Assembly: GCA_964467775.1 (NCBI GenBank)
Contig: CAYXUD010000080.1
Coordinates: 1,586 to 65,585 of the forward strand
Reading direction: 5' to 3'
DNA from: an uncultured Bacteroides sp.
Lineage (GTDB): Bacteria > Bacteroidota > Bacteroidia > Bacteroidales > GCA-2748055
Length of the DNA: 64,000 bases
The first letter of the stretch is position 1, and the number at the start of each line of letters is the position of its first letter. Of this stretch, positions 6,909 to 61,885 are shown one piece after another. Made by a program: the position numbers and the translations under genes. The notes beneath the pieces were generated by a model. That model was given only the letters and a program-made list of their open reading frames with translations, did no database searches and was not told the origin of the DNA.

Positions 6909-8276
6909 CTACTCAGATCGTCCGCCTGTACTCATGGGATCGCCTTTGTATCCCAGTTGTTCCCAGTTAAGTCTCTTTGATTCTTTCTTTGTATGGCAAT
7001 CTGTACATTTCAGTGATTTTTCGGCAGGAGCAACCATATGATTGATGGGCCAGTACATGGCTGTTTCCACAAAATTAAATTCACCCGAATAGGCCAAATG
7101 GCTGGCAGCCATTCCCAACGCTGAAGCGCTGTCCCAATCGTATGTTTTCCAGTAGCCATCTTCGCCGAACAATTTGGGAGTAATTAAATAGAGGTTTTGG
7201 GAATCGTAAATCTGTTTGCCACGCATCACCTTGAATGGGGTAATTTTGGCCTTCTCATCGCTGATATTTCCAGTGAGCCTGTTAAGCTCTACCACTTTTT
7301 CAGGATCAATCTTCTCTCCAAACTGGTAATAATCAGCTTGCCCATTGTGCCACCTGTACTCCGGGACCACATTTTTCTCCCAGATGAAATCACCCTTTTT
7401 CTTGTCGTAGAGCGGCATTCCGAATGCATCATTTTTAACGGTTTTGTCCTGTCCGGCAGAGGACCAGTCCCACCATGTCTTTGTGGGTTCCTGGCGGGCA
7501 AAGGAGGGGATATGACATGTTTCGCATGCCACGGATCTGATGTGATCATTCACTATCTTTTTGCCATGGGGTTTTTCATCGTGACAGTCCAGGCAGGCAA
7601 TGTGATTGGTTCCGGCAGCCAGTGAACCGTGACTTGCCCCAAGAATCCGGTGATTTTCTCCGGCGTGACAGTCGGAGCAGCTAAAACCAAGCTTACCCAT
7701 ATGAACGTCCAGGGCTGGCGAAGGATTCAGCATGCTTCCATCCATATCCCCATGTTTCACCCCGGTTCCACCACCACCATTGAAATGACAAACGCTGCAG
7801 TTACGGATGGTGGTTCTTCCCACACTCTGCGCCACTTTAATCAGATCGACCGAAGGATCGGGCATGCCTGCTCCTGTGGGCACCTTTTTATAGGTTCCGG
7901 TCTGTTCGTGACAAATCAGACAATCAATGTTGTTTCCGTCTGTAAAGTCAAATGTCTCATCTTTCCAGCCAAAACCAATATGGCAACTCGTGCAACGGGC
8001 CCAATTTGAGACTAAGGAGATGCAATAGTTATTGATGATGTTTTGCTTTCCCACCCTCAATGTGTCCCCCTCCTTATTGACAAATTCATCACCCAACCAG
8101 TTCCAGTGCCTGGTTTTCATGATATCCTTGTCAATGCCATCATGGCAAAGCAGACATGTTTCCGTAACTTCCTGAGGGGTGGTAAAAGGACCATCAATTA
8201 ATTCCGAATGGTCTTCCTGCGCAAACATGGGGATTACAAATAGCAGTACGAATAGAATTGTAGTCGGAGTTTTCAT
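6909..8276 (-). CDS. octaheme c-type cytochrome, tetrathionate-reductase (Otr) family-like
   Basis: 455 aa with a signal peptide and eight CxxCH motifs: CLLCH, CTSCH, CLICH, CSVCH, CSDCH, CLDCH, CETCH, CTDCH. Size and heme count fit the Otr octaheme family. Confidence 0.7.
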   Translation of the reverse strand: MKTPTTILFVLLFVIPMFAQEDHSELIDGPFTTPQEVTETCLLCHDGIDKDIMKTRHWNWLGDEFVNKEGDTLRVGKQNIINNYCISLVSNWARCTSCHIGFGWKDETFDFTDGNNIDCLICHEQTGTYKKVPTGAGMPDPSVDLIKVAQSVGRTTIRNCSVCHFNGGGGTGVKHGDMDGSMLNPSPALDVHMGKLGFSCSDCHAGENHRILGASHGSLAAGTNHIACLDCHDEKPHGKKIVNDHIRSVACETCHIPSFARQEPTKTWWDWSSAGQDKTVKNDAFGMPLYDKKKGDFIWEKNVVPEYRWHNGQADYYQFGEKIDPEKVVELNRLTGNISDEKAKITPFKVMRGKQIYDSQNLYLITPKLFGEDGYWKTYDWDSASALGMAASHLAYSGEFNFVETAMYWPINHMVAPAEKSLKCTDCHTKKESKRLNWEQLGYKGDPMSTGGRSE

Positions 8277-8466
8277 CTCTTTTATGTAACCTAAATGTGT
8301 ATCATTTTAGCGATATTACTTGAAACTGCCCTTCCGGAATATCTGAGCAATTATAAGGAAGTAAATCCAATTAAATATAGGCAGAATATACAATTTAAAA
8401 GAATATGAAATCCACAATCGAGAAGAATCATCCAGTCCTGAGGAGGATGCAATTACGATCGAGGAT

Positions 8467-8763
8467 TTATCGTTTGATCATGCGTGATTCAATCTCTTTG
8501 ATATGATCAACCAGAAACGGGGAATCAATTCCCGATACTGCCTTAATCCATGTCTTTAGCCTGAGGTTTTGTTCATATACCTTCTGACAGCTGCGCTTTT
8601 CCTCTTCGTCTGTTATTGTATTGTTATTGTTATATATGGATTTTAAATTCTCCAGCAAACGGTCCTTCTCCCGGCACCATTCGGAGTTGCGTTCATCGCA
8701 ATTACACTTTGCTTCATCAATCCACTGGAACAATCCCTCCGGGATATAGATTCTGTGCTTCAT
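8467..8763 (-). CDS. hypothetical protein (98 aa)
   Basis: ORF track only; no recognisable motif. Lies in an AT-rich context. Confidence 0.3.
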   Translation of the reverse strand: MKHRIYIPEGLFQWIDEAKCNCDERNSEWCREKDRLLENLKSIYNNNNTITDEEEKRSCQKVYEQNLRLKTWIKAVSGIDSPFLVDHIKEIESRMIKR

Positions 8764-9111
8764 ATAATTACTTGATTTTAAAATCTTATACTGATTTCCA
8801 ACATGTTTGGTACTGAGAAAAAGTACCTTTTTTCGTTGTGATGATCGCGGAATATAGCCTCCTCCAGTTTTTCGAATTCAATGAATTTCTTGTACACCAC
8901 ATGACTGTGGTCATCTGAACCATTTTTGTCTTTCAGAGAATCAATCCCAGCTCTTTGCAATTCAAAGATAGGCAATAAAACCAACAGTTGGGGATGCAAT
9001 CAGGGTAAAAATGGCCAGTATCCCAGACATGCAATAGATAGCAACAGGAATGAAATAGAGATGGACGAAAATATTCTCATTATTTTTGTTGCATAATACC
9101 TACAGAGCTCA

Positions 9112-9707
9112 ATGAAAAAAGAAAAAATTTATCCTGATTCAGAAGTCGAGCTAAATCCATCATCCAGGCCATCAAGGATATGCATATCCAGCCAAATGAC
9201 CATATTCTCGATCTGGGATGAGGGACCGGGCACAATACCAATTTAATGGCTTCCTATTTAAACGAAATGGGAACTATCCTTGGTTTGGATATTTCTGAGG
9301 AGATGGCTCTTCAGTTCCAAGCCCGGTTTTCTGAGGATAGTCGCATCAGATTTCAACCTCAGCGTGTTGATCTTCCATTTCAATTAGATAAGAAATTTGA
9401 TTAGGTATTTATAGGGTTTGTGATCCACGGATTTCCACATAATGTTCGTCATTCTGTGATTGAGAACGCATATAACCATCTTGAAGCAGGCGGAGCATTC
9501 TATATACTCGATTATGTTGAATTTGATTTGAATTCTATACCATTCCACCATCGCGCAATCTTCAAAGCAATCGAATGTAAATATGCTTTCGATTATATCG
9601 GGCATGAATGAGAATCCATTTTAAAGGAAAAAGGATTAAATGAATTCACCGAGCATTTTTATCTAAAAAACTACGTGAGGTTGCTGAAAGCAGTAAAACA
9701 GAACTGA
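9112..9707 (+). pseudogene. class I SAM-dependent methyltransferase, decayed (three in-frame stops plus an N-terminal frameshift)
   Basis: One frame reads ...IIQAIKDMHIQPNDHILDLG*GTGHNTNLMASYLNEMGTILGLDISEEMA...DKKFD*VFIGFVIHGFPHN...LEAGGAFYILDY...YIGHE*ESILKEKGLNEF...KQN*. In-frame stops are TGA 9219, TAG 9402 and TGA 9609. The LDLGxGTG motif I is interrupted. The only upstream ATG (9112) is in another frame. Confidence 0.75.
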
Positions 9708-9720
9708 TGGAACACTACCC

Positions 9721-10575
9721 TTATTTTACTGTTCCTCGTTTGACTACAAAATCGCCGGTCTGTGTGCCTGTTTTTTCTGCTATCAGATCACACTTGGTGA
9801 CAAACAGAAAATAGACATGATCATGGGGCACATCGATCAATCCCTCCAGGTTACCCTGACCTTTGGAAATAACTACATCTGCATTTATAAAATGATCTTT
9901 AAAATCCTTGGAAGAAGACTCCCACACGGCCCCAGGGGAGTCATCCCCTGTGGTAATCACGGTAGCTATATTATCTATGCCTGTCATCTGTGCATCATCA
10001 AGCGTAACATCATTTATCACAGGACTTTCCCGGACCACAAAATACTTCTGAGGTACATTAATTGACTCTAAGAATAGCTTGTCCAGAACAATCTCCCCGC
10101 AGTTGTCACCAATATAGAGCAGGGTGTCTGCATGTTTCAGGTCATGACGCAGTTCCGGGGAATGATCAATAGCCAGTTCATGGTTCATCACCTGGTTGAT
10201 CTTGGACTTTATATCAAACTGGTATTTCGCTCCAAAATCGATCACATTTCCTGCAATGGCAAGACGGATGGCTGTATCAAATGAATCGTCTGAACTGTCC
10301 ACCATTTCCTTAAAAGAAGGGTACAATTCCAGCATCATGTGGTTATATTTCTGCTTAAGTTGATGATAGGGATCAGGGTTTTGCAAAGAGGCACGAATCA
10401 TTCTCTGTAACGTTCGCCCCAGCATGGGCGGGGATTGATCGTAATTACTCCGGGACAAATATTTTAACAATTGACGTAAAATAATTTCCTGCCGAGGCTG
10501 GGGTATGACATCTGTTTCAATCAGTCTCAGATAGTTGTTAATAATGCAGGGTATACACTCAAATTGAGTCTTCAT
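9721..10575 (-). CDS. DUF89 / ARMT1-like damage-control phosphatase family protein
   Basis: 284 aa. N-terminal CIPC, IGDNCGEIVLDKLF and ISKGQGNLEG match the conserved DUF89 (PF01937) motifs. Confidence 0.75.
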   Translation of the reverse strand: MKTQFECIPCIINNYLRLIETDVIPQPRQEIILRQLLKYLSRSNYDQSPPMLGRTLQRMIRASLQNPDPYHQLKQKYNHMMLELYPSFKEMVDSSDDSFDTAIRLAIAGNVIDFGAKYQFDIKSKINQVMNHELAIDHSPELRHDLKHADTLLYIGDNCGEIVLDKLFLESINVPQKYFVVRESPVINDVTLDDAQMTGIDNIATVITTGDDSPGAVWESSSKDFKDHFINADVVISKGQGNLEGLIDVPHDHVYFLFVTKCDLIAEKTGTQTGDFVVKRGTVK

Positions 10576-10585
10576 GTATGCGTTA

Positions 10586-11800
10586 CTATTTTTTACAGTT
10601 CAGTTTGTAAATAAAAAAAAGCGAGAGCAGAATAATAGACACAAACAAAATAAAAAATAACAGATATCCAGACCGCTCAATGATCCATCCTCCCAGTAAT
10701 GGGAATAGGGCCGGGATAATATTCCCTGTTCCTGCAATCCCGGTATACAAGGTCCTGTTCTCTGTACCCGATATCTCCAGTAATACCCCATTCATGGAAA
10801 TACTATACATTGAAAAGATTACGCCTCCTGCTAAAAAAATAAGCGTGAATGGGGGCACACCAGGTGATAACAAGAGGATCAGGGGGACTGATACAACTAA
10901 AAATACATTACCGTAAAGCAAATAACGATATTTGAACTTTTTATTGATCAGAAAAAGGATAAAACCTATGACAACACTTCCTATTACTTTATAAAGGAGA
11001 AACAAACCGGTGTCATGACTTTGGGTATGATGCACCTCCTTGGCATACAGCATAATAAAAGGTAAAAGGGTAATGCTGATTCCCATGGTATTGATGAATC
11101 CAAGAAAATATACCAACTTGTTATTATGGGCTAATTCAGCTTTGATTAAAGAGAGGAAATGACGGGGATTTTTTACAATCATTCTTGAAGACTTGTGTTC
11201 TTTCAGTTTCCAGAATCCGATTGATGCGATCAGAAGAGCCAGAAAGCCGATCATAAACATGGTTGCATAGTTAACAGGATAGTCATTAAGTGTAATCACT
11301 TTTTTGGCAAGCAAAGCAGAAAAGAAGAGTACTACCCCCCCAACAACCTGTTTAATTGAAAAAAATGATTTTCTCAAAGATTGATCCACTGATTTACCAA
11401 TAATATCGGTATAGCTAACATTGGCAAAAGCACCACCAAGTGAAAAGAATGTGATAAGCAAAAATATCAACCAGATCGTGTGGCTGCCTGTGACTGAGAA
11501 ATAGAGCATGATACTCATGAACAGCAGTGAAATGATCCTGGCATTAATGCCCATCAGCAGGAATTTCTTCTTATAAGGTCGATTGCTAATAAATGGAGCA
11601 AATATTAATTGAGTAAAACTGGAACCACCCAGCATGATGGCAGTCATCAAACCAATGTGAAATCCATTCCCGCCAGCCTCCACAATCATGGCGGGGATAA
11701 CCGTATCAACATCCATAAAATTTTGGGCCAGTGCCAGAAAAGAAGCATGCCAGAGGAAGGAATGATAATTATGTCTGGATATACTTGGAGTGAGCTTCAA
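10586..11800 (-). CDS. MFS transporter
   Basis: 404 aa, about 12 hydrophobic segments, two-halves architecture with a central basic loop (KEHKSSRMIVKNPRH). Confidence 0.75.
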   Translation of the reverse strand: MKLTPSISRHNYHSFLWHASFLALAQNFMDVDTVIPAMIVEAGGNGFHIGLMTAIMLGGSSFTQLIFAPFISNRPYKKKFLLMGINARIISLLFMSIMLYFSVTGSHTIWLIFLLITFFSLGGAFANVSYTDIIGKSVDQSLRKSFFSIKQVVGGVVLFFSALLAKKVITLNDYPVNYATMFMIGFLALLIASIGFWKLKEHKSSRMIVKNPRHFLSLIKAELAHNNKLVYFLGFINTMGISITLLPFIMLYAKEVHHTQSHDTGLFLLYKVIGSVVIGFILFLINKKFKYRYLLYGNVFLVVSVPLILLLSPGVPPFTLIFLAGGVIFSMYSISMNGVLLEISGTENRTLYTGIAGTGNIIPALFPLLGGWIIERSGYLLFFILFVSIILLSLFFIYKLNCKK

Positions 11801-11809
11801 AGTACAGTA

Positions 11810-12116
11810 TTAATCATATAGTAATCTGGTTTTTTCGTTGGCCAGGATTGGATTAATTAAACCTGAAAGGTCCAGAGATTCCCACGTTCCAAGTTTGGTA
11901 TGTATGGCATAGTATTTTTGCGGGATTGGATGGGATCGAACGATTGCTTTCATACCATATTTTTCCCGAATCAGATCCTGAAAATGCCTGATATTCATCT
12001 GTTGTGCAGATATCAAACGTGGCCTCCCTATTATGAAGGGCTCGGAAACATTTACCTCCACCACAGTAGCGATAACGGTCACAAATAATGATTCCGATCT
12101 TAGTTATTGTCGTCAT
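11810..12116 (-). pseudogene. CGGC-domain-like small protein, probably degenerate (two overlapping frames)
   Basis: Frame 1 (11853..12116) starts MTTITKIGIIICDRYRYCGGGKCFRALHNRE, which resembles the CGGC-domain N-terminus. Frame 2 (11810..12082) ends ...DLIREKYGMKAIVRSHP, which resembles the domain C-terminus. The central CGGC motif is missing. Confidence 0.3.
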
Positions 12117-12126
12117 GTCTTGAAAC

Positions 12127-12504
12127 TTAATTACTCTGCTTTACTTCAAACATATTACCGCTATGATCCGAGATAAATATCAGATCGGAATTGTGTCTTT
12201 TTAAGCGAATACACTTATATGAATGTTGAGTTGCTCTCTTAACAATTTCTTCCCTATGGGAGGTCGAAATGCATATATGATTAAAGCCATGATGATGTTG
12301 TTCCGGCGTCAAAAATATTTCCAGTAACAGTTTATCTTTTTGCAACAGAAAGATTTTCGTTTCTTCCTCAATACCAAAAATATTCCTGGCAAGATCCTTA
12401 TCAAGAATAAAACTTCTTATCTCAATCATTCCTAAAATTTCATGATAGAACTGTTTGATCTCATTATAGTCCGTAATAGTCAACGCAATATGTTCTAATT
12501 TCAT
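12127..12504 (-). CDS. VOC (glyoxalase/bleomycin-resistance/dioxygenase) family protein
   Basis: MKLEHIALTITDYNEIKQFYHEILGM...HHGFNHICI...DHSGNMFEV shows the typical VOC beta-alpha-beta-beta-beta pattern. Start chosen at ATG 12504, directly after the upstream stop (12506-12508). Confidence 0.65.
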   Translation of the reverse strand: MKLEHIALTITDYNEIKQFYHEILGMIEIRSFILDKDLARNIFGIEEETKIFLLQKDKLLLEIFLTPEQHHHGFNHICISTSHREEIVKRATQHSYKCIRLKRHNSDLIFISDHSGNMFEVKQSN

Positions 12505-12505
12505 T

Positions 12506-14365
12506 TTATAATTCTTTTGCAAGTTCGTATGCCCCATGAATTGCATCCTGGGCGTTACCGGGATGCCTGGCATCACCGATCACATAAACTGGCAATTTGC
12601 CCGTGAGCTCTTTTTCAAGGGGATTATAACTTTTCATGCCAGCTGAAACAACAACAACATCTATGTTTTCAAATTGGATTTTTTCTCCATCTTTTTCCGC
12701 GAAAACCGTTTTGTCTTCAATTCTCTTTATAGAAGTATGATCACTAAAAATTGTCCCCTTTTCCTCCATTATTTTTAAGGATAAATTCTTTGCAATCATT
12801 TCCATATCCTCTCCAAAATCCGTGGTTCTTTTGACTATAATAACCTGGTTATCCAATGGAATTAATGCTGTGGCTATATCAACCCCAATAAGGCCGCCCC
12901 CAATGATCAATACTCTTTTGTTTCTTGGAAGATTCTTTTCCAAAAGTATTTCTGCACCATAGAATTTATCCATTCCCGGAATTTTAAGTACTGCCGGTTT
13001 AGAACCTGTTGCTAATATCAGACCATCATATTTAGATATAATATCTGATATTGTAGCCTCTTTGAAAATTACGCTTATATCATTATTTATTAGCTCCTCA
13101 ATAAAATATGGCACCAACAGTGCCATTGATTTTTTATGTGGAGTTAAAGGTGCTAAATTGAATTGCCCGCCTAATTTATCTTTTTCATAAAGGTCAACTG
13201 TATGTCCGCGTTTCCTCAGGATAATGGCAGCCTCCATACCTGCCAATCCACCACCAACAACTGCAAATTTTTTAGGATGCCTTGTTTTTCTTATAATATC
13301 TGACTCCTTACCAACTTCAGGATTTACAAGGCATTGAAGTCCATGACCCGATTTAACTCCGCCCAGACAACCTTCTGCACAGGCCAGACAGGGTGCTATA
13401 TTGCGTCCTACCGTTCCAAGATATTTCCCTGTGAAATCCGGGTCGGCAATTAAAGATCGTCCAATAGCAAGATATTCTGCTTTGTGTTCATTAAACAGCG
13501 CATCTATGTCATCTTTTGTATTGATCCTTCCAACGTAAATCACCGGTATATCAATTTCTCTGCGGATGGTATCTGCAAAATCCCATGTTTTTCCTTTCGA
13601 AACAAACATGTGCTGAAAGAACCATGGGGGTGTTGTACAAACAGATCCGGCGGAGACGTGAATGGCTGCTGCTCCATTCTTCTCCATAATTCGTGCAAAA
13701 TGAATCATTTCATCGATATGAAAACCTTTAGGGGTCATTTCATCTCCGCTGATTCGTATAATTACCGGGATATCAACAGCACTTATTACGGCCTGGACCA
13801 CCTCCAGTGGAAATCGGTATCTGTTTTCAAAGTCTCCTCCATATTCATCCGTACGATTGTTGACCTGAGGTGATAAAAATTGAGCTAACAAATAACCATG
13901 TCCAAGTTGAAGTTCGATCAAATCAAAACCTGAAATAACAACCCTCCTGGCTGCATCTTTGAAAAGTTGAATGACCCTGTTCATCATTCTCCTGTCCATT
14001 TTTTCAGGCACAGCTCCTCCATTTTCGCAAGCCCGGGTAGTTGATGACCAGAAGTAATTTTCGGGTATCATCGGATTGGCCATTCTCCCCGGATGGTTTA
14101 AATGGGCAATGGCTTTGGCTCCATGCCGATGAATGATGTCTGTAAGCTTACGAATACCTTCAATTTTATCATCATTATCAATACCCAGTTGGGTTGGTAA
14201 CTCCCTCAAACCCTCATCTATATAAAAAGGTTCGGGGATCATGGCTCCGATATTCTGGTTTCTCCGGTTGTAAAATTGCAGATGCCTGTCAGTTACCACT
14301 CCCGTCCCATCACTGTAGCCAAGCTTGACTGGAGCTAAAATGAATCTATTTTTTAATTCTATCAT
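12506..14365 (-). CDS. NADH:flavin oxidoreductase (Old Yellow Enzyme domain) fused to an FAD/NAD(P)-binding domain (2,4-dienoyl-CoA reductase-like)
   Basis: 619 aa. The OYE TIM-barrel part carries HLNHPGR, ELQLGHGYLLAQFLSP and a Cys cluster (CLACAEGC). This is followed by a Rossmann GxGxxG (VVGGGLAGMEAA) and a second IIGGGLIGVD. Confidence 0.8.
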   Translation of the reverse strand: MIELKNRFILAPVKLGYSDGTGVVTDRHLQFYNRRNQNIGAMIPEPFYIDEGLRELPTQLGIDNDDKIEGIRKLTDIIHRHGAKAIAHLNHPGRMANPMIPENYFWSSTTRACENGGAVPEKMDRRMMNRVIQLFKDAARRVVISGFDLIELQLGHGYLLAQFLSPQVNNRTDEYGGDFENRYRFPLEVVQAVISAVDIPVIIRISGDEMTPKGFHIDEMIHFARIMEKNGAAAIHVSAGSVCTTPPWFFQHMFVSKGKTWDFADTIRREIDIPVIYVGRINTKDDIDALFNEHKAEYLAIGRSLIADPDFTGKYLGTVGRNIAPCLACAEGCLGGVKSGHGLQCLVNPEVGKESDIIRKTRHPKKFAVVGGGLAGMEAAIILRKRGHTVDLYEKDKLGGQFNLAPLTPHKKSMALLVPYFIEELINNDISVIFKEATISDIISKYDGLILATGSKPAVLKIPGMDKFYGAEILLEKNLPRNKRVLIIGGGLIGVDIATALIPLDNQVIIVKRTTDFGEDMEMIAKNLSLKIMEEKGTIFSDHTSIKRIEDKTVFAEKDGEKIQFENIDVVVVSAGMKSYNPLEKELTGKLPVYVIGDARHPGNAQDAIHGAYELAKEL

Positions 14366-14484
14366 CCTGCAATTGTTTTTTATAATCTCATTACATATCC
14401 TGCTAATCCGACTATAAAAGCAACAATGCTTTCTAAGGAAGCCAATGTACTCGCAGTATTTAAATGAAAATCAAGCAATAAGAA

Positions 14485-14712
14485 CTATGTCTTATCCTTG
14501 ACCATCTCTTCCCTGATCATGGTATGTCCACATTCGGGACATTTTAGGGTAGTGCATTTTACCCCTCTCCTGTGTGGAATTTTTTCGCCACACTTTGTGC
14601 AAATACAAAACCCACCTGTTCCATAAGAACCACCTTTATTCCGGCCTTGCCCTGTACCAGGGCCGGATCCTTTATCCTGGCCCATATGCATACCTTTTCC
14701 AGATTTGTTCAT
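14485..14712 (-). CDS. small Gly-rich zinc-ribbon protein
   Basis: 75 aa with a Gly-rich N-terminus and two CxxC pairs (CTKCG...CPECG). Confidence 0.5.
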   Translation of the reverse strand: MNKSGKGMHMGQDKGSGPGTGQGRNKGGSYGTGGFCICTKCGEKIPHRRGVKCTTLKCPECGHTMIREEMVKDKT

Positions 14713-14783
14713 AATATCTGAATTTTATTACTTACCCAAAAGAAACAGGCTATTGTTAGCGCAACCTATATCTTTTGTTTCAA

Positions 14784-15089
14784 TTACTTCTTTTCGGTGT
14801 TTGAGAGCCGATCTTCAAGTGCGGACAACTTGTCTTTGAGAATCCTGATCTCGTTTTCAATTAAAGTCTTTTCAGATACATCAGTGACATTTCCATGGTA
14901 ATAATTTCCATAGCCATACCTGACCCCCCCACCATAACCAGGGCCACCATGAAATCGCCTTCTATATCCTCTTCCCCAATTCGATTGCGAGGTCATATAA
15001 CCAGGTTGATCATTGCCCGTACAATATCCCATCCCTCTTCCTGTTTTAGGTCCTTCACCCGATGGACCTGTTCTGTCACCTCTTGGCAT
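14784..15089 (-). CDS. DUF5320 domain protein
   Basis: 101 aa. MPRGDRTGPSGEGPKTGRGMGYCTG with a Gly/Tyr-rich middle and a C-terminal coiled coil (ENEIRILKDKLSALEDRL) is the characteristic DUF5320 layout. Confidence 0.7.
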   Translation of the reverse strand: MPRGDRTGPSGEGPKTGRGMGYCTGNDQPGYMTSQSNWGRGYRRRFHGGPGYGGGVRYGYGNYYHGNVTDVSEKTLIENEIRILKDKLSALEDRLSNTEKK

Positions 15090-15113
15090 AATTACCTCCT
15101 TTTTTATGATGTG

Positions 15114-15545
15114 TTAAATGCAGCATTTTCCATGGCCAAAATTTCCAGCCAAATTCATGATATTTTTTGAATGACATTCGGGACATTCTCTGATATTTTC
15201 TTTAAAATTTATTTTAAACATATGCCCACAATTTTTGCATTGGATGATATTAACTCTGAAATGCACAGTACCCCCTTCAATTGTAAGCAGCCTTCCCTGG
15301 ATAATGAAATCAGCAATTTTTTTCCTTGCCTTTTCAATCAACCGGGAAAAGGTAGATCGGGAAATTTCCATTTCATCAGCCGCTAAAGCATGTGAAAAGC
15401 CCAATTGATCAGCCAGTCGAAAGGCTTCAAATTCATCAAGTGTCAAAATAATCGGTTTCAGATTATGTCCTCTTACCCCGATTGGTTTAAAATCGGAAAA
15501 CAGAGGTGGCTCATATACGATTCTATTATACTGTGGTCTTGGCAT
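15114..15545 (-). CDS. DUF134 (UPF0251) putative DNA-binding protein with C-terminal zinc ribbon
   Basis: MPRPQYNRIV...KPIG...LTLDEFEAFRLADQLGFSHALAADEMEISRSTFSRLIEKARKKIA is the DUF134 HTH core. The C-terminus has CKNCG...CPECH. Start set at ATG 15545. Confidence 0.75.
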   Translation of the reverse strand: MPRPQYNRIVYEPPLFSDFKPIGVRGHNLKPIILTLDEFEAFRLADQLGFSHALAADEMEISRSTFSRLIEKARKKIADFIIQGRLLTIEGGTVHFRVNIIQCKNCGHMFKINFKENIRECPECHSKNIMNLAGNFGHGKCCI

Positions 15546-15664
15546 AATGTATATATTATTACAAATATAATGCACATATGTGCATTATACAAATTATTTT
15601 CCTTAGTTTTGAACAACAGTTTTCATATGATAACAATATATGTAACCCTATAAAATATGACAGT

Positions 15665-16003
15665 ATGTGGATAGAAGTTCTAAAATCAAAAATACACCGG
15701 GCAAAGGTAACCGGCGCTGATTTGAATTATTCAGGAAGTATAACTATAGATGAAGCCTGGATGCAAAAAGCTGATTTAGTCGAATTTGAAAAAGTGCAAG
15801 TATTGAATATTAATAATGGTGAACGGTTTGAAACATATGTTATAAAAGGTCGAATGAACAGCAAGGAAATCATATTAAACGGTGCTGCCGCCAGGAAAGT
15901 TCAGGTAGGAGACCTTGTCATTATTTTATCGTATACATGGATTGATAAAAAAGAGTATGATCGGTATAATCCTGTGATTTTTATTGCAGACGTGTCATCA
16001 TGA
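15665..16003 (+). CDS. panD: aspartate 1-decarboxylase
   Basis: [33 protein letters not shown]...[11 protein letters not shown]...[19 protein letters not shown] is a near-consensus PanD, including the G-S self-cleavage site. Start at ATG 15665. Confidence 0.9.
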
Positions 16004-17539: not shown

Positions 17540-17750
17540 CAGGGAAAATACGGCGAGGTTCATTCCATGCTCAATAAAAGTATTTCATCCCTGTACGTGG
17601 GAATTGCCATGGAAAAAGGTATCATCAAGGGTACAGAACAGTTCCCAGGGGGAAAGAGGTGAACTGGTACTCGGCCAGCGGATGGGGAGGACAGAAAATG
17701 ATTGTGTTACCCGGACTCAATACGGTTCTGGTTTTCACCTGCCGACCCAT
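17540..17750 (+). pseudogene. serine-hydrolase/beta-lactamase-family-like remnant (two frames)
   Basis: Frame A reads QGKYGEVHSMLNKSISSLYVGIAMEKGIIKG*, which resembles the active-site helix region. Frame B reads VNWYSASGWGGQKMIVLPGLNTVLVFT, which resembles the C-terminal strand. The middle ~250 codons are missing. Confidence 0.3.
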
Positions 17751-18368
17751 CGTCCGAACAGTACGTCATGTATTCCATAATACGGATTACCGTCGCTATC
17801 GATCTCACGATTGTTCAATTCCATTTTCAGCAGGGAATGGAGGGAACGGAGGACCGTGGCAGAATTTCCAAGCTGATGCCTGGCGATAAAATCGGACGAG
17901 GTGGGGTGGTATACATGGCCCGCGACTGCAACCGCCTTTAAAGTTCCCATTGGCGTTTTGTCAGCATCTCCCGGCAGCCGAAAAAAACAAACTCCTGTTT
18001 TCATGAATTGCATGCTCCTGTACCACGGGCTTACCCTGTTCTTCCAGAATGAGGAATAATTCGGCAATTGTTTTTCTGCTTTCATCCGGGGTCGTTTTAA
18101 TACTTATCAGGAGCGCTCCGCTCAGCGCATCGTAACTTATGACAGGACGAAGTGACCTGATCAATTGCCAACCCTTTTTACCCAATGTGCTTTTTTCGGA
18201 GTATTCGGAAGTAATTGCGGTAGAAAGCTGGTTCAGCATATCGCTGATGGATTCGGTCGGCAGTATATCCAGGTATATGATGATGTACTTCGACCTAAGG
18301 TGGTGAAAGAGATGCCTGATCAGCGCAGTTTTGCCCAACCTTTTTTCATAACCATGAAGGTTATCCAC
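17735..18368 (-). pseudogene. AAA ATPase (Arch_ATPase/DUF234-type) remnant, frameshifted and truncated
   Basis: ORF 17961..18368 carries a Walker-A-like RLGKTALIRHLF. ORF 17735..18085, in another frame, carries a DUF234-like C-terminus (...HVYHPTSSDFIARHQLGNSATVLRSLHSLLKMEL...YGIHDVLFGRWV). The total is about half the normal length. Confidence 0.5.
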
Positions 18369-29217: not shown

Positions 29218-29524
29218 ATATTATACCAATTTATATATCACTGTATATCAAATAGTTATAAACATATCACAATCTATATCGTTGTGTGTAGTTACAGCAA
29301 CACCCGGATTCCGGATTGATTACATTTAAGAGACAGTTTCATTCATTCAAAACGGTTTTTTGTATCTATAATTTTCCGGTTCTTTATCTGTAATTACTGA
29401 TAAACTTAAATTAACCAAATTAGGATCGACTTGACTTTTCCATCATCAATTCAAATTCACCGGGCTCAACCTAAGGTTTCGTGTTTCTGCTTTTTACTGT
29501 CAAGTCACAAGTACTTTTCGGATC

Positions 29525-29794
29525 CTATTCTATAATCTTCAAGATTTCACCGGGAATAACTTTTCCATTCGGGATGGTTAAATGACCCTCGCAGCTGTTA
29601 TTTTGAAGGTTCAGATCATTGCTGTCCGTTATTTCTATTTCAGCAGTTATCCTGAAGCTTCCATGGGACGCCTTCCAGTTTTTCCCGTGTATGCCCTGGG
29701 CACAGGCCAGTTCCATGCCCCCGACCGGGATTGCTAAAGATCTTGAATTACGCGAGCGCAGTCCCCGAAGTTCTACTTCGGGGTAAGCGAGCAC
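29525..29794 (-). CDS. C-terminal remainder of the GH3 protein (second half of a CARDB-like beta-sandwich); first ~17 codons are element-encoded
   Basis: MLAYPEVELRGLRSRN is a translation of the repeat. SRSLAIPVGGMELACAQGIHGKNWKASHGSFRITAEIEITDSNDLNLQNNS continues the domain begun by ...IIRFYVDGKEVAWYH at the end of 29950..32250. Confidence 0.65.
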   Translation of the reverse strand: MLAYPEVELRGLRSRNSRSLAIPVGGMELACAQGIHGKNWKASHGSFRITAEIEITDSNDLNLQNNSCEGHLTIPNGKVIPGEILKIIE

Positions 29795-29851
29795 AAATAA
29801 AATAAGAAATTAATCGATGATTCCTCGCAGCTTGCTGCGAGGAGAGTCAAT
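29742..29851 (+). mobile_element. repeat element, diverged unit V (first unit of a tandem dimer)
   Basis: Sequence: cttgaattacgcgagcgcagtccccgaagttctacttcggggtaagcgagcacaaataaaataagaaattaatcgatgattcctcgcagcttgctgcgaggagagtcaat. It has the same length as the canonical unit and aligns to it without gaps. Both hairpins are retained through paired substitutions. Confidence 0.8.
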
Positions 29852-29954
29852 CCCGCTCGCGCATTCCCCGTAGCTTTGCTGCGGGGTAAGCGAGCACAAA
29901 TAAAATAATTTATGGATCGAAGATTCCTCGGAGCTTGCTCCGAGGAGCTTCAAT
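29852..29954 (+). mobile_element. repeat element, canonical unit C (second unit of the dimer; shares the junction 7-mer with unit V)
   Basis: 103 nt identical to 32951..33053. It follows GTCAAT of unit V directly, without its own left ATTGAAT. Confidence 0.85.
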
Positions 29955-32250
29955 GATACCATGCCACTTCTTTCCCATCCACATAAAAACGGATAATATG
30001 CGAATCGCCCATATTCGAAGTTGCTGTTCCGTTGTTGATAAGTGAAGCCATCAATATGACTTCTTCTCCATCCTTGGGAAAAGCAGGAATGGAACGAATA
30101 TTTTTCACTGAAAGGTCCGCTTTGCCTTCTGCCCCAGTCATGTTAAATCCAGCTTTCAGGGTCAGGTTGTCCGAAGACCCACCCACCCGCACAATGAATT
30201 CACCGGCCGGAACTTGGTAAGATCTCTTTACTTCATTGTATATGTACAACTCTTCGGGAGAAAGGGTGAATACAATCTTTTTAGTTTCACCCGGATGTAG
30301 AAAGACTTTCTCAAAACCACGTAATTGTTTTTCGGGCATCTGAAGATCAGGGGTAATTTTCCCGGTTGACAGATATAACTGCGCCACCTCTTCGCCGGCA
30401 ACTTTTCCTGTATTTTCGAGGTCGAATGAAACTTCAATGATTTCTCCCACCCTGGCGTCTGCCCTGTTCACCTCAATATTCGAATATTGAAAAGTGGTGT
30501 AACTCAATCCAAATCCAAAAGCAAATTCAGGTTCCAGATCTTGCGAATCGAACCAGCGATATCCTACGCCTCTGCTTACCATGTGACGAAAATCAGAACT
30601 AATGGGGATTATCTGCCCGTCATTTTTAGGAATCGTAGCCGGCAGTTTTCCCGAAGGGTTGTAATTGCCGAACAGAACATCGGCAATGGCACGCCCGCTT
30701 TCCTGTCCCGGATAGAACGCATAGAATAGTGCCTTCACATTGGTTATGACCTGGGTTACACTGCAGGGTCCTCCCGAAATCACTACCAGAATTATATTTG
30801 GATTTACCTTTGCTATTTCATTGATCAACTCATTCTGAATCCCGGGAAGAAGAACTGTCCCTGATTGCCTGTCAGGGCGGGTAACCAATCCACCTCCTTT
30901 CTGATCAGCCTCTTTGTCAAAGAAGTATCCCTCTCCTTCCACAGTACTGTCAAGCCCGGCCACAAAGATTACATATTCTGAATTTGCCGCAGCTTCCAGT
31001 GCTGCCCTGAATTGTGATTTATCCTGGTCATTGATGTTGCAACCTTTTGCATAGGATACATGCGTTTTGCCAAGTATGGATGTAACAGCCGTTTCAACGG
31101 ATATGCGATATGAGGGTAGTACCTGTGAACTGCTGCTCCCATCCAGTGGCAAATGTGCGGCATTGGGACCAATCACCGCTATCTGCGTCAGCTTTTCCTT
31201 ATCAAGAGGTAAAATGTTTCCATTGTTCTTCAGTAGCACAAGACTTATCAAACCACTCTCGTACACCAGTTTACGGTGTGCCTCGCAGTCGATCACACTT
31301 GTGGGAACCTCCGGTACACCATCTATCATCCCGGATATGATCTTTGTCCGAAGCACATTCCTTGTTGCTCTTTCAACCAGTGCGCTGTCGAACCTGCCCT
31401 CCCTCACTCCGACTGGCAGTTCATTGATATACAAATCGTTGCCTTCGCAGAAATCCAGTTCAGCACTCAGGGCTTTTCCTGTTTCACTGAAACCGCCCCA
31501 GTCGCACATGGTGTAATAGTCAAAACCCCATAGGTCGCGCAGCAGCTCTTTTATCAGGTACTTGTTTTCGGCACATTTATCGCCATTCACCCGGTTGTAG
31601 GCACACATGATTGAAAATGCTCCTCCAATCTGTATGGTTCTTTTCCAATGATATCCCCAGAATTCAACCAGGCTACGCTCATCGCTCAGGTAATTGTTGG
31701 TCCTTCTGTTCATTTCATAGGTGTTCAGATTATAGTGTTTCACAGAACCAAACACAGAAGTAGTATTTTGCCCGAGCACAAAGGCTTCAGAGATCCTGCC
31801 ACCCAAAAAAGGATCTTCCCCGATGGTCTCGGGAGCGCGGCCAGTACGCGGATCAATAAGTAGATCGAGTGTGGGTCCGGCAATACGGTCTCTGCCCCGT
31901 GAAGCCTGCTCCATGGAAATGGCCCTGCCCACCCGTGTGATCAGGGCAGGATCCCAGGTGGCCGCCATGGCGATGGTTACAGGAAAGCATGAGAATCCGT
32001 AGGCTCCGTTTCCTATACCGTGCGGGCCATCGCTCCCGGTAAATTGAGGAATTCCCAAACGTGGGGTTCCATCGGTGAGGTAATACAACTGTTCAATCTT
32101 CTCCTGCATGGTCATCCCGGACAGAAGGGTATCGAGCCTTTTTTCCAGTGCACTTTCAGTTTCAGTAGGCATCGAAGAACATTGAATTACCAGAAAACCC
32201 GACAATCCAATCAACGGGAAGAACAAAATGTGGGACACTATTTTTTTCAT
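29950..32250 (-). CDS. GH3 beta-glucosidase-type glycoside hydrolase, truncated in its C-terminal CARDB-like domain by the repeat dimer
   Basis: Signal MKKIVSHILFFPLIGLSGF (ATG 32250, overlapping the upstream stop as TAATG). GSDGPHGI, KHYNLN, MCDWGG and a Fn3-like domain are GH3 features. The ORF stops at a TGA formed inside the element terminus (..tat cat TGA agc). Confidence 0.85.
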   Translation of the reverse strand: MKKIVSHILFFPLIGLSGFLVIQCSSMPTETESALEKRLDTLLSGMTMQEKIEQLYYLTDGTPRLGIPQFTGSDGPHGIGNGAYGFSCFPVTIAMAATWDPALITRVGRAISMEQASRGRDRIAGPTLDLLIDPRTGRAPETIGEDPFLGGRISEAFVLGQNTTSVFGSVKHYNLNTYEMNRRTNNYLSDERSLVEFWGYHWKRTIQIGGAFSIMCAYNRVNGDKCAENKYLIKELLRDLWGFDYYTMCDWGGFSETGKALSAELDFCEGNDLYINELPVGVREGRFDSALVERATRNVLRTKIISGMIDGVPEVPTSVIDCEAHRKLVYESGLISLVLLKNNGNILPLDKEKLTQIAVIGPNAAHLPLDGSSSSQVLPSYRISVETAVTSILGKTHVSYAKGCNINDQDKSQFRAALEAAANSEYVIFVAGLDSTVEGEGYFFDKEADQKGGGLVTRPDRQSGTVLLPGIQNELINEIAKVNPNIILVVISGGPCSVTQVITNVKALFYAFYPGQESGRAIADVLFGNYNPSGKLPATIPKNDGQIIPISSDFRHMVSRGVGYRWFDSQDLEPEFAFGFGLSYTTFQYSNIEVNRADARVGEIIEVSFDLENTGKVAGEEVAQLYLSTGKITPDLQMPEKQLRGFEKVFLHPGETKKIVFTLSPEELYIYNEVKRSYQVPAGEFIVRVGGSSDNLTLKAGFNMTGAEGKADLSVKNIRSIPAFPKDGEEVILMASLINNGTATSNMGDSHIIRFYVDGKEVAWYH

Positions 32251-32996
32251 TACAGGCAGGTTACTCCGTATAGCATATAGCCGGTATCGTTCATGGCCGA
32301 TATCAAATCGATGGATCTGATTTCTACATCGGGCCTGGGATTTTCCCATGTATAACGGTATAATTTCAACACAAAACCCAGGTCTTTTACCCTGGGATTT
32401 GAACCCTCCCATGCCAGTTCAGCTCTGGGTGGAAATACTGAATTCTTCGGATGGAACCACCAATCTTCAACCTCGATCCGGCTTCTGATGGTGATGGTTT
32501 TTTTCCGGTTATCTGCATAATTGACCACAATGCGGACAACTTCTGTCCCTGTTTCACTCTCCCAGGCTGATGAATGCAAGAAGCATAATTCATCAGCCAT
32601 GTGATGAACAGGTATGCCGGAAATTTCCTTCGGATAATTGATGTGGGACATTTCGAGGGAAACCTTGCTGGCCAGCTGGATAATGCCACGGGCATCGAAA
32701 TTCACACCGTTAAAATCATTGATTCCAGAAGGAATGGGTATGGTATTGCCTGGTTTGCCATGAATCTCTTCACTCAAAGAAAAATTATAATAAGGCTCCA
32801 GATCAACATATCTGCCATCGTCAGGGAATTGCCGCGGGACAATGGCGCGCAATGGTTTTGTTCTTATTTGCATCATTTCTTTTTTTGATTGGACCGGAGG
32901 CAACTCCTTATCGAAATCGTCGCTGGTATAGGTTATTTTAGTAATTGAATCCCGCTCGCGCATTCCCCGTAGCTTTGCTGCGGGGTAAGCGAGCAC
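32250..32996 (-). CDS. C-terminal accessory domain of the interrupted GH-A hydrolase (unassigned beta-rich domain); first 17 codons are element-encoded
   Basis: MLAYPAAKLRGMRERD is element-derived. The host part is SITKITYTSDDFDKELPP...VNFDARGIIQLAS...LCFLHSSAW...VNYADNRKKTITIRSRIEVEDWWF...WENPRPDVEIRSIDLIS. The frame joins 33049..33957 if 103 nt are removed. Confidence 0.6.
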   Translation of the reverse strand: MLAYPAAKLRGMRERDSITKITYTSDDFDKELPPVQSKKEMMQIRTKPLRAIVPRQFPDDGRYVDLEPYYNFSLSEEIHGKPGNTIPIPSGINDFNGVNFDARGIIQLASKVSLEMSHINYPKEISGIPVHHMADELCFLHSSAWESETGTEVVRIVVNYADNRKKTITIRSRIEVEDWWFHPKNSVFPPRAELAWEGSNPRVKDLGFVLKLYRYTWENPRPDVEIRSIDLISAMNDTGYMLYGVTCL

Positions 32997-33053
32997 AAAT
33001 AAAATAATTTATGGATCGAAGATTCCTCGGAGCTTGCTCCGAGGAGCTTCAAT
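32944..33053 (+). mobile_element. 110-bp repeat element, copy in the GH-A gene
   Basis: 109/110 identical to 3098..3207. Hairpins at 32965..32985 and 33025..33044. Termini ATTGAA...TTCAAT. Confidence 0.85.
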
Positions 33054-33957
33054 CTCCCGTGAAAATAAGTACCTGTGTGGTACGTGGCCCAATGATGTCG
33101 TGGTATACCTCATCGCGCTGCCCCTGAACCACAAAAATTAATCCAGGTCCGCTTTCGCCCGCATCATCCAGATATAAAGTATATTCCCCGGGATCGCCAA
33201 AGCCCCTGTTCATCATCATGACGCTGAGTCGGTCGCCATCCTGTGCGCCATAAACCAGGAAATCATCATTGGAAACTGTCCCCTTCAGGAAGGTGCCTGT
33301 AAAATATTTTGCCACAAACTCCATGTGCCGGTATGATGCCCTGGGGGTCATGTGGGCTCCGTCGATCAGGCTGAAATCGGATTCTTTGCGGTCGCCTCCA
33401 TGTTCAAACATGCTCCAGCAGGCGGCATAGGCAGCTTCGTACTCCATGCACCAGCCCAGTACCGCCCCGAACATTTGTCCGTTCCCCCACGTGTGCACCT
33501 TGGGGCCTCCCTTGGAGTTGTACTCTCCAATTCCCCAGATCAGCGCATCAGCGCCGGTACGATTGTGCAATGCATTCACCTGGTCTGTTTTAGCTTTTGA
33601 TTTCACGATGCGTTCCAGGAAATCGTTGGCTCCTTCAATGGCCGGGTCGCCGTCACCCTGGGGATAACGGTGCCAAGACAGACCGTCGCAATAATAATAA
33701 TCTTTGTCCGGGACTTTGATCGCGATATCGTTTTTCCCTCCAAACAGGTCATCGAAAGGCACATCGAAATAATCGCAGAAATCGGGACCATAAATCTTTA
33801 TGGTGGGATCCACCGCCTTCATGGCGGCAGCAATGGGTTTGAAATAGCCTTCGACAAACTCCCCCATGGTTGAAAGGGGCGGACGGTTGGCCTGCAACCA
33901 GGGTTCGTTACCAATGTTCCAGTATTTAACCGGCGATACACCCTCATGTTTCTCCAC
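33049..33957 (-). CDS. clan GH-A (TIM-barrel) glycoside hydrolase, central fragment (family not assigned)
   Basis: VKYWNIGNEPW (NEP acid/base motif). Paralogous along its length to 34298..35620. It stops at the TGA in the element terminus (gga gat TGA). The apparent GTG start follows a frameshift. Confidence 0.75.
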   Translation of the reverse strand: MEKHEGVSPVKYWNIGNEPWLQANRPPLSTMGEFVEGYFKPIAAAMKAVDPTIKIYGPDFCDYFDVPFDDLFGGKNDIAIKVPDKDYYYCDGLSWHRYPQGDGDPAIEGANDFLERIVKSKAKTDQVNALHNRTGADALIWGIGEYNSKGGPKVHTWGNGQMFGAVLGWCMEYEAAYAACWSMFEHGGDRKESDFSLIDGAHMTPRASYRHMEFVAKYFTGTFLKGTVSNDDFLVYGAQDGDRLSVMMMNRGFGDPGEYTLYLDDAGESGPGLIFVVQGQRDEVYHDIIGPRTTQVLIFTGD

Positions 33958-34301
33958 GTTAAAAACCGGACCAGTTCGGCGACAGCTTCAGCAGGTTGGT
34001 ATTGGGAAACCTGCAGAATGGGTACAGCTCCTACAGCCTGGATTTTTTGAACCCAATCCAACAGTGTTTCCTTCGATGGCAGGTTCTTGTCATACGCATG
34101 GCCTCCAATCCGGATGGTTTTCATTCCGCACTCCATGGTAAGGTTCCATGCCTGCTCGCCCGGATCATTGTACCATACATTGGTGCCAACCAGCAGTGGG
34201 CTGATCTGTTGCGCAATGGAATCAGTGGCAAGGAAAATAAATATCCCGGCTATGAGTTTAGAAGCACAGGTTTTCATGATGGATTGTATTGAAGATTTCA
34301 T
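33819..34301 (-). CDS. N-terminal fragment of the same GH-A hydrolase (signal peptide plus first ~113 codons real, remainder out of frame)
   Basis: MKSSIQSIMKTCASKLIAGIFIFLATDSIAQQISPLLVGTNVW...IRIGGHAYD...ILQVSQYQPAEAVAELV parallels QEISPWLFGQNHW...VRIGGNGYE...ILQVPRKFSAEEVTGLV of the paralog. Frame is lost at the A5/T5 run 33961..33965. The start overlaps the upstream stop (ATGA). Confidence 0.7.
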   Translation of the reverse strand: MKSSIQSIMKTCASKLIAGIFIFLATDSIAQQISPLLVGTNVWYNDPGEQAWNLTMECGMKTIRIGGHAYDKNLPSKETLLDWVQKIQAVGAVPILQVSQYQPAEAVAELVRFLTWRNMRVYRRLNTGTLVTNPGCRPTVRPFQPWGSLSKAISNPLLPP

Positions 34302-51401: not shown

Positions 51402-52211
51402 ATGAACAGTCAATTATCCAGGTGTACGGTCATTGCATCAGTCTCACTCCTTTTATGGGGCTGTGCCGGGAGGACCCCCGGCACACCTGAAGCTGTCACC
51501 TCCCTTTCCGCTCAGGTCAGGGAGGTGCGCCCGGGTGTGCTGGAGGGATACCTTTCGCGTGAAGATCTGCCCAGCAGCCTGGCGCTGCTGCCTCCGCCGC
51601 CCGAGGAGGGATCCGCCGCATGGGAGCTCGATATGGAGATGGCAGCAAAGTTCGTGGCCATGGAGGATGAGGCCAGAAGGGAACAGGCGGCCAGGGATGC
51701 CGTTCTCTCGTTTCCTGAAGCCGCGGAGGCATTCAATATAGTGCTGGAGGTGAAGATCTCGGAAGAGGCCACCCCGCATCTCTATATGATCATGCGCCGG
51801 ACGCTGACCGATGCGGGATTATCTGTCAATGAGGCAAAAGAGCATTACGGGCGGATCCGGCCCTTCATGGTCAACGGAAAGCCCATCTGCACCCCCGAAG
51901 AGGAGGAATTCCTGAGGGGGAACGGGTCCTACCCCTCGGGGCATACGGCCATTGGCTGGGCATGGGCGCTTATCCTGACAGAGCTCTTTCCCGGCCAGGC
52001 CGATGTGATCCTGGAAAGGGGAAAGCAGTACGGGATCAGCCGGATGATATGCAATGTGCACTGGCACAGCGATGTGGTGGCAGGATGGATGATGGGGGCG
52101 GCAACAGTGGCCAGGCTGCATGCCAATGCAGACTTTCTCACCGATATGGCGGCGGCCAGAAAAGAGGTGGAGGCGCTCAAAAAATCCCGGGTTCTCTCCC
52201 CGGCGGCATGA
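51402..52211 (+). CDS. class A nonspecific acid phosphatase (PAP2 family)
   Basis: KEHYGRIRPF, YPSGHTA and SRMICNVHWHSDV are the three PAP2 signature motifs. Lipoprotein-like signal (LLLWGCAG). Start ATG 51402. Confidence 0.85.
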   Translation: MNSQLSRCTVIASVSLLLWGCAGRTPGTPEAVTSLSAQVREVRPGVLEGYLSREDLPSSLALLPPPPEEGSAAWELDMEMAAKFVAMEDEARREQAARDAVLSFPEAAEAFNIVLEVKISEEATPHLYMIMRRTLTDAGLSVNEAKEHYGRIRPFMVNGKPICTPEEEEFLRGNGSYPSGHTAIGWAWALILTELFPGQADVILERGKQYGISRMICNVHWHSDVVAGWMMGAATVARLHANADFLTDMAAARKEVEALKKSRVLSPAA

Positions 52212-52310
52212 TCGTTGTGGGCCGTTTCCGGCAGGACTTCACCCTCCCGGTCAGCCGGTCAAGGGAATGCGCAGCAGGCCACTGTGGTCAATGACAGCTG
52301 TTTTCCGCAC

Positions 52311-53312: not shown

Positions 53313-53321
53313 GATTCCCTG

Positions 53322-54020: not shown

Positions 54021-54092
54021 AGAATGGTTGTTAATGAGCGGTGAAAATAGCAAAACCGGCGGTCAGTTCAAAATTACGGGCATTTCCCGGGA

Positions 54093-54914: not shown

Positions 54915-54991
54915 GTCCCGGATGAATCATCCACCGGGCAAGTTATGAAATTTTAAGGATCTAAAGATGAAATCCAAACAGATTTCGCAGG

Positions 54992-56311: not shown

Positions 56312-56419
56312 TTTCCGGATGACGGGCTGAAGATAATGCTTATTGGGTTCTGACCGGTCTTTGATTTCATTAGCCTTTGCCTTATTTTTAACACTATCAA
56401 TCCAAAAGATCAACAACAG

Positions 56420-56951: not shown

Positions 56952-57094
56952 CCGAATAATTGATATTTTTAAGGTCTCAACAGGGTCCAATGAGATTATT
57001 TACGGCACTTTTCGTCCGCTCCATAGCCACCATGGTGGCACCGGACCATGAATCCGAATCGGCATTGTATTTTGAAGAATAAAATATAACAAAG

Positions 57095-58123: not shown

Positions 58124-58179
58124 TTGCCTGTTTGATCCCCCTCTATTCAAACTACTATTTTTGATGAAAACACCACCTC

Positions 58180-61871: not shown

Positions 61872-61885
61872 GCTATATTCAGGTT

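Follow-up and report, generated by a model that had tools for sequence, protein, structure and literature searches.

The 64,000-nt stretch of DNA analysed here (the window; positions 1,586 to 65,585 of contig CAYXUD010000080.1, assembly GCA_964467775.1, uncultured Bacteroides sp.) carries a gene for a glycoside hydrolase family 3 (GH3) beta-glucosidase that is split by two head-to-tail copies of a 103-nt repeat at positions 29749-29954. That a real mobile-element insertion divides a single GH3 gene at this point is as good as certain, and as a gene disruption it is unexceptional. The repeat unit is a mobile element of the non-autonomous kind, and its assignment to a family is inferred; a preliminary description of the region had left the identity of the repeat unstated, and it is added by the present analysis. 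The reading favoured here, to which a probability of about 0.6 is given as a whole, is that the gene is split by a dimer of IS200/IS605-type elements resembling the palindrome-associated transposable elements (PATEs).

The interrupted GH3 gene

Both units of the dimer lie on the plus strand, directly 3' of the host hexamer TTGAAT at 29743-29748. The unit adjoining this motif, c2 (29749-29851), belongs to subfamily B of the element, begins TACGCGAGCGCA, ends GTCAAT and shares 81% identity with the master copy of the family, which belongs to subfamily A; the second unit, c3 (29852-29954, 103 nt), is identical to that master copy, and the two units differ at 19% of positions. The GH3 gene is encoded on the minus strand, where the upstream open reading frame (ORF) extends from 32412 to 29950 and terminates ...DGKEVAWYH, with FYVDGKEVAWYH as its last residues, directly before a TGA stop. 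The start at 32412 is an extension in the mechanical ORF list, and the true start is probably the ATG at 32250, giving a truncated gene at 29950-32250 of 766 codons plus stop. The TGA had been ascribed to the terminus of the element and is in fact built entirely from element bases: it occupies 29950-29952 (TCA on the plus strand, within the TCAAT at 29950-29954 that closes c3), and the minus strand, carrying the reverse complement of TTCAAT, reads tat c/at tga agc. Downstream, the minus-strand ORF listed at 29525-29794 begins at a GTG within c2 and encodes MLAYPEVELRGLRSRN followed by SRSLAIPVGG... (SRSLAIPVGGMELACAQG...). The 17 element-encoded codons that had been counted before SRSL need correction, the number being 16, and the 16th codon, AAT, consists of one element nucleotide and two of the host. 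The detached 3' remainder of the gene proper (29525-29748, minus strand) runs from SRSLAIPVGG to ...KIIE and a stop.

Removal of 29749-29954 (206 nt, 2 x 103, an insertion of 2 mod 3) joins these ORFs into a single frame of 839 aa counted from MKKIV, as had been proposed, and the repaired protein matches the Pfam domains Glyco_hydro_3, Glyco_hydro_3_C and Fn3-like. A large protein collection contains over 100 proteins, each about 839 aa long, that align with it at 70-80% identity and 96-100% coverage, many of them annotated with a CARDB domain (PF07705). Among the best 40 matches, 39 orthologs show no gap at the junction (...EVAWYH/SRSLAIPVGGMELACAQG... against ...EVANYH/SKSIAIPVGGMELACAQG...), and all 39 run approximately 73 residues beyond ...YH. 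No ortholog ends naturally at AWYH; the sole protein among these 40 that does end there is P0001, which is 99% identical and is located on a 3178-bp short-read contig from the Joint Genome Institute (JGI), L002. This contig corresponds to the stretch between c3 and a further copy of the element, c4, and since it breaks inside the element at both ends, P0001 and L002 represent the same allele, assembled independently, with the same 766-aa product. An intact same-species allele of the GH3 gene, or of the gene interrupted by c4, was not found in the protein collection, the next best proteins being 80-81% identical. In length and in the order of its domains the repaired protein agrees with its orthologs, and the two halves are, on the evidence of sequence comparison, one gene.

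A rival explanation is that the repeat was misplaced or duplicated during assembly. Repeats do break short-read assemblies, as the ends of L002 within the element illustrate, and the window contains at least one other probable frameshift, in a run of T residues (see below). However, the independent contig has the same junctions between the element and the GH3 gene and between c4 and its host gene, the divergence between c2 and c3 precludes a simple collapse or expansion, and more than 20 other sites show the element between clean flanks, so that an artefact is considered extremely improbable.

The insertion had been suggested to fall midway through a CARDB-like C-terminal domain, and the Pfam matches of orthologs, a structural model and a Foldseek search agree on this point. 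CARDB (PF07705) is matched at residues 710-818 in the orthologs P0005 and P0007 (26.8 and 25.4 bits; gathering score 22.7), which places the junction after residue 766 in mid-domain, at about position 50 of the 101 in the profile. The half that remains in the window covers profile positions 2-50 and scores 16-17 bits, below the gathering score of 22.7. When the repaired last 144 residues were modelled with AlphaFold2 together with 20 ortholog segments, the C-terminus was predicted as one eight-stranded beta domain (pLDDT 81, pTM 0.76); strand 4 ends at the junction, and four strands lie on either side. The top Foldseek matches of this model in the PDB are the CARDB domain of Pyrococcus PF1109 (3idu and 2kl6; TM-score 0.72-0.73 normalised to the target). 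The interrupted domain is thus confirmed by these three approaches as a CARDB-type beta-sandwich.

The 766-aa product retains the GH3 N- and C-terminal domains, the Fn3-like domain and the first four CARDB-like strands. As judged from its domain content, with the catalytic and Fn3-like domains intact, it may remain active, although the half sandwich left at its end may not fold. The second half of the sandwich is encoded by the 73 codons stranded downstream of the insertion, which would be translatable only from the GTG inside c2. In principle, the gene would be whole again if both units were excised without a scar.

Copies, ends and target motif of the 103-nt element

Tandem Repeats Finder reports the dimer as a repeat of period 103 with 1.9 copies at 29756-29954. 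There are four copies of the unit in the window, all on the plus strand: c1 (3105-3207), c2, c3 and c4 (32951-33053), and an nhmmer profile search of the window found no others. The copy c1, which has a single mismatch to the master copy and is preceded by TTGAAT at 3099-3104, lies inside the six-hairpin catalytic domain of a GH78 alpha-L-rhamnosidase gene, the halves of which are the minus-strand ORFs 3078-5348 and 2186-3091; an ORF reads through the whole element at this site (site 1; the GH3 gene is site 2). At site 3, c4, identical to the master copy and preceded by TTGAAT at 32945-32950, splits a GH44-like gene into the minus-strand ORFs 33049-33957 and 32250-32996. The same per-unit arithmetic had been noted for these single-copy sites, and removal of 103 nt repairs both, long ORFs being restored only by deletions of length 1 mod 3. 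The repaired site 1 encodes a 1019-aa GH78 rhamnosidase in which the Pfam domain Bac_rhamnosid6H extends over residues 465-809 with no break at the junction (713), and the repaired site 3 reads ...TTQVLIFTGD/SITKITYTSDDF... (IFTGD/SITKI), gapless against nine orthologs of about 640 aa.

Beyond the window, an exact 26-mer of the element was found at one locus among species-representative genomes (a metagenome-assembled genome labelled uncultured Bacteroides), and a 22-mer in 26 metagenome contigs, most of which come from four series of JGI samples. Plasmid and phage collections gave no match to the dimer in distant-mode BLAST, and a search of a protein set with the element-encoded peptide yielded no candidate for a further interrupted gene. 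An identical 103-nt copy is present at nine independent sites, those of c3 and c4 included, and this identity points to a very recent burst of activity. Subfamily B, defined like c2 by the beginning TACGCGAGCGCA and the end GTCAAT, includes the copies on L008 and on L009/L010, the latter differing from c2 by 1 nt. Close to the left end, an inversion of 8 nt (CGCTCGCG in place of CGCGAGCG, at 29749-29760 and 29852-29863 respectively) separates the two subfamilies, with loss of an outer GCTCGC/GCGAGC helix, and the copies on L022 and L023 are mosaics, in which a left part from one subfamily is joined to a right part from the other. Extra small hairpin modules are present in a set of longer variants measuring 119-150 nt (L001, 6113-6235; a second copy on L009, 92-203; L018, 1564-1682). 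One of these modules is CGAAG-ATTGA-CTTCG, the loop of which is complementary to the terminal TCAAT, and the 103-nt form looks like a deletion derivative of such variants.

As determined by in-silico excision and inspection of reading frames, about nine of 20 independent sites are intragenic. In addition to the GH78 rhamnosidase, GH3 and GH44-like genes of the window, the interrupted genes encode an Ig-like domain protein (L009), a saccharopine-dehydrogenase-like protein (L013), a MacB/FtsX permease (L020), a product without assignment (L021), an outer-membrane-receptor-like C-terminus (L025) and a leucine-rich-repeat protein, which is hit 12 codons before its end (L027). After excision, Pfam domains are continuous over the junction at L009 and at L020, in the latter case MacB_PCD at 25-236 over junction 118. 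Junction-spanning ORFs in L003, L022, L023 and one frame of L009 have the look of antisense artefacts and were left out of the count. The remaining sites are intergenic, several of them just upstream of start codons.

This distribution bears on whether the interruptions might be removed at the level of RNA or translation, by an intron-like process or by ribosomal hopping of the kind known from T4 gene 60, with the GH3 protein still made whole. Many copies are indeed intragenic, and at sites 2 and 3 a stop codon is directly followed by a strong hairpin at the supposed take-off point. Against such bypass, copies occur in both orientations relative to genes, the reading frame varies between sites, the ORF at site 1 traverses the whole element, and there are intergenic copies as well. 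The codons before the gap and before resumption do not match (CAT and AAT), 103 nt is far below the size of group I or group II introns, and an Rfam search of 29400-30100 with E-values up to 10 gave only sub-threshold matches, the best being Chloroflexus-1 with 25 bits against a gathering score of 181. Bypass is accordingly regarded as very improbable.

Conservation around the element is confined to its left side. Among 23 independent left flanks TGAAT is present in all and TTGAAT in 21, with no conservation further upstream, while 24 independent right flanks are unconserved, at no more than 0.19 bits per position. That TTGAAT is host DNA is evident from the coding sequence in which it lies: its minus-strand complement ATTCAA forms part of the codons (c)AT TCA A(ga) for His-Ser-Arg at the GH3 site, where it is required for the gapless ortholog alignment, and part of Asp-Ser-Ile codons at site 3, and in both cases the residues are present in orthologs. 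Two orthologous uninterrupted genes (L029 and L030) read TAT CAT TCC A.. at the GH3 insertion point. At the other end, all complete copies terminate in TCAAT, as either TTCAAT or GTCAAT. The left and right motifs differ constantly, G against C, at 23 of the 23 sites, and therefore there is no target duplication.

The same features can be set against a conventional miniature inverted-repeat transposable element (MITE) mobilised by a DDE cut-and-paste transposase, which would have inserted at TTG^AAT with a 3-bp AAT duplication, each unit then being a 100-nt element plus 3 bp. AAT does flank every copy on both sides, and the arithmetic of 103 nt per unit would be identical. The 103 nt contain only local hairpins, however, and no terminal inverted repeats, the left end CCCGCTCGCGCA being unrelated to the reverse complement of the right end GAAGCTCCTCGG. 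The bases before AAT are fixed at all 23 sites yet different, TTG in the host and TTC or GTC in the element, which is better accommodated by a target motif with a related motif inside the element, and conservation of the target is strictly one-sided. A DDE-type MITE is thus an unlikely source of these insertions.

The unit has two subterminal hairpins of related sequence and the same orientation, with 9-bp stems and loops of 2-3 nt: hairpin 1 is CCCCGTAGC-TTT-GCTGCGGGG and hairpin 2 is CCTCGGAGC-TT-GCTCCGAGG, the latter closed by a GAAG/CTTC helix that covaries between subfamilies. Six hairpin base pairs show compensatory changes on both sides, the covariation score was reached by none of 500 shuffles, and 96.8% of hairpin cells are paired, compared with 35-50% when the partner columns are slid. 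Folded as single-stranded DNA, the unit has a z-score of -4.5. The cut would precede the left hairpin by some 13-14 nt and follow the right one by 9 nt.

A miniature of the IS110/IS1111 type, moved by a DEDD recombinase with a bridge RNA through site-specific recombination with AAT as shared core, would likewise insert in a site- and orientation-specific manner with no real duplication. The c2-c3 junction, GTCAAT/CCCGC, resembles a circle junction, and an IS110-family element is present in the same populations. Its ends are nonetheless unrelated to the CCCGCTCGCG... and ...GCTTCAAT of the 103-nt element, and it sits in hairpin 1, so that it appears to target the 103-nt element rather than to share its termini. 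The lack of conservation in the right target flank also speaks against this possibility, since bridge-RNA recombinases read both halves of their target. An IS110-type origin is considered quite unlikely.

The IS110-family element in question is 1315 bp long (L012, 2520-3834; also in L005 and L006) and lies within hairpin 1, between CCCCG and TAGC. Its 339-aa transposase matches the Pfam domains DEDD_Tnp_IS110 and Transposase_20, and the same element is found in at least two different copies of the 103-nt unit, which it appears to target. Its 5' untranslated region holds TTTAGAATT, matching the joined ends of the insertion sequence, which would fit the donor loop of a bridge RNA; no Rfam match was obtained for this nested element. 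Lying next to partial copies on L005, L006 and L012, it was also considered as a mobiliser of the 103-nt element and rejected on account of its position inside hairpin 1 and its unrelated ends.

Candidate transposition mechanism

It is proposed that the 103-nt element moves by an IS200/IS605-type mechanism, a proposal made by analogy and judged slightly better than an even chance. IS200/IS605 elements and PATEs have in common a left target motif outside the element, a related motif at the right end and palindromes bound by a Y1 HUH transposase, and they move as a single-strand circle with no target duplication, leaving a scarless donor joint that keeps the motif (PMC3201880, PMC10055086, PMC8612924); for PATEs themselves, adjacent and terminal motifs, absence of target duplication and a scarless donor joint have been described (PMC10055086). 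By this scheme a Y1 HUH transposase (TnpA), supplied in trans, would recognise the two similar subterminal hairpins and excise and insert the element as a single strand, cleaving 3' of TTGAAT in the host on the left and 3' of TTCAAT or GTCAAT in the element on the right. Insertion would proceed without target duplication and leave the target motif intact. Because nothing would be duplicated and the motif kept, exact removal of 103 nt per unit would be expected to repair each gene. Since the motif would survive insertion, a second copy could enter the same TTGAAT and form a head-to-tail dimer, and two insertions at the same retained motif best explain the dimer in the GH3 gene: both elements would have inserted on the plus strand directly 3' of the host TTGAAT in the His-Ser-Arg codons, placing TGA right after His766. 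Given that the position occupied by C in the element's own end is G in all 23 targets, we think that c2, which adjoins TTGAAT, is younger and entered after c3, rather than c3 having inserted after the GTCAAT of c2.

Several observations weigh against this mechanism. A Y1 transposase was not found in the window or in 175 kb of loci by tblastn, for which TnpA sequences of IS608 and IS200 served as queries (best E-value 0.55), and a full-length element with the same ends was not seen among 27 loci. The ten small or unassigned ORFs of the window have no transposase domain according to Pfam, and the same holds for neighbouring genes. Complementarity of the IS608 type between guide sequences 5' of the hairpins and the cleavage motifs is not convincing by inspection: ATT stands before each hairpin and each cleavage motif closes in AAT, and the IS608 pairing rule (PMC3201880) cannot be fitted neatly to the element. 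The top strand of the element is antisense to the gene in seven of nine intragenic sites, a small sample, and this is opposite to the naive expectation for insertion into the lagging-strand template if genes follow replication. The junction of c2 with the host, finally, is seen in the window alone, L002 supporting only the c3 side of the dimer in addition to covering the c4 junction. GC skew, tried as an indicator of replication direction, follows gene orientation in the window and proved uninformative.

Among known systems, PATEs, which are reportedly also present in Haloquadratum, provide the nearest frame for comparison. Like the PATEs of Geobacillus stearothermophilus (PMC10055086), the 103-nt element is short and gene-less, has neither inverted terminal repeats nor a target duplication, carries subterminal hairpins on one strand at both ends, has a fixed motif outside its left end with a related motif at the right end, and can be removed without a scar. 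It differs in that no cognate TnpA was found in the loci searched, in its motif of six bases (TTGAAT) rather than four or five, in being too short for a TnpB guide RNA scaffold, and in that nearly half of its sites are intragenic. The family is probably a new member of the PATE type and represents no new kind of system.

ISDra2 and IS608, two IS200/IS605 elements that have been studied, are autonomous, measure 1.3-1.7 kb and carry the genes tnpA and tnpB. The target of ISDra2 in Deinococcus radiodurans is TTGAT, which is kept intact (PMC8612924), and IS608 of Helicobacter pylori inserts 3' of TTAC, also kept intact, with spacings between cut and hairpin of 19 on the left and 10 on the right (PMC3201880). 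The 103-nt element similarly inserts 3' of a specific motif, which resembles the TTGAT of ISDra2, and shares with IS608 an asymmetric spacing in which the cut is farther from the left hairpin (13-14 and 9 here, compared with 19 and 10), but guide pairing of the IS608 type is not demonstrable for it. TTGAAT was also searched for in the literature as a target already known for IS200/IS605 elements, with nothing relevant returned.

The repetitive extragenic palindromic (REP) sequences and REPINs associated with RAYT Y1 proteins are also short hairpin repeats with presumed HUH Y1 handling, and hairpin 1 of the 103-nt element contains GTAG. REPINs are extragenic and made of inverted REP pairs; the hairpins of the present element are instead in direct orientation, and at least nine of its approximately 20 sites are intragenic. 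The Correia (Neisseria), RUP (Streptococcus) and ERIC MITEs are comparable in length (about 100-150 nt), in being gene-less and multicopy, and in interrupting or flanking genes. Classical bacterial MITEs, however, are bounded by inverted repeats and duplicate a target such as TA, and neither feature is present in the 103-nt element.

Window context and implications

The site-3 GH44-like gene has a second lesion at 33960-33970 (minus strand ccggtttttaacgtggag), where a run of T residues is one T short and the frame shifts between a 160-aa ORF (33819-34301) and a 302-aa ORF (33049-33957); orthologs read VRFFNVEKHEG here. Either a genuine mutation in a dead gene or a sequencing error in the homopolymer could account for the missing T. 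In two related genomes (ENA assembly ERZ25039527; L029, 1166-2964, and L030, 1041-2964) the ortholog of this gene is frameshifted at other positions, which looks like assembly error rather than biology, and the order of the GH44-like gene followed by the GH3 gene is conserved in both. Elsewhere in the window, overlapping ORF pieces at 17735-18368 (minus strand) are ATPase-like by eye, the only piece scanned (17961-18368) being without a Pfam match, and a pair of gene pieces at 9246-9611 (plus strand) resembles an S-adenosylmethionine methyltransferase, again by eye; the window may hold further pseudogenes or assembly frameshifts. The G+C content climbs along the window from 0.39 (8001-16000) to 0.56 (52001-64000), suggesting a mosaic origin of the region.

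The element itself carries outward-reading start codons on both strands. A minus-strand GTG (29749-29794 and 32951-32996) opens a frame, beginning MLAYP..., that matches the frame of the downstream gene half at sites 2 and 3; translation from a plus-strand ATG (3165-3207) would give MDRRFLGACSEELQ..., reading out of the right end.

For annotation, the present results mean that the window contains three glycoside hydrolase genes, each interrupted by a mobile repeat, rather than six ORFs, and that the GH3 enzyme probably keeps its catalytic core minus half of its last domain. Three glycan-degrading genes have been hit within 30 kb. A more far-reaching idea, speculative and unlikely, is that the unit belongs to an undescribed, currently active mini-transposon of the IS200/IS605 type in sediment Bacteroidota, specific for the six bases TTGAAT, which by leaving no scar would serve as a reversible on/off switch for glycan genes and would offer, in its first hairpin, a specific landing site for a bridge-RNA-type IS110 element. 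Understanding of how IS200/IS605-type elements work is unchanged by the present findings; what they provide is a clean account, drawn from many sites, of a small element with hairpins at its ends, a six-base target recognised on one side and a very recent burst, as the nine identical copies would indicate. Should a Y1 transposase be found, the element would constitute a well-defined new PATE family in the Bacteroidota, and would exemplify how carbohydrate-active genes could be recovered through excision that leaves no scar.

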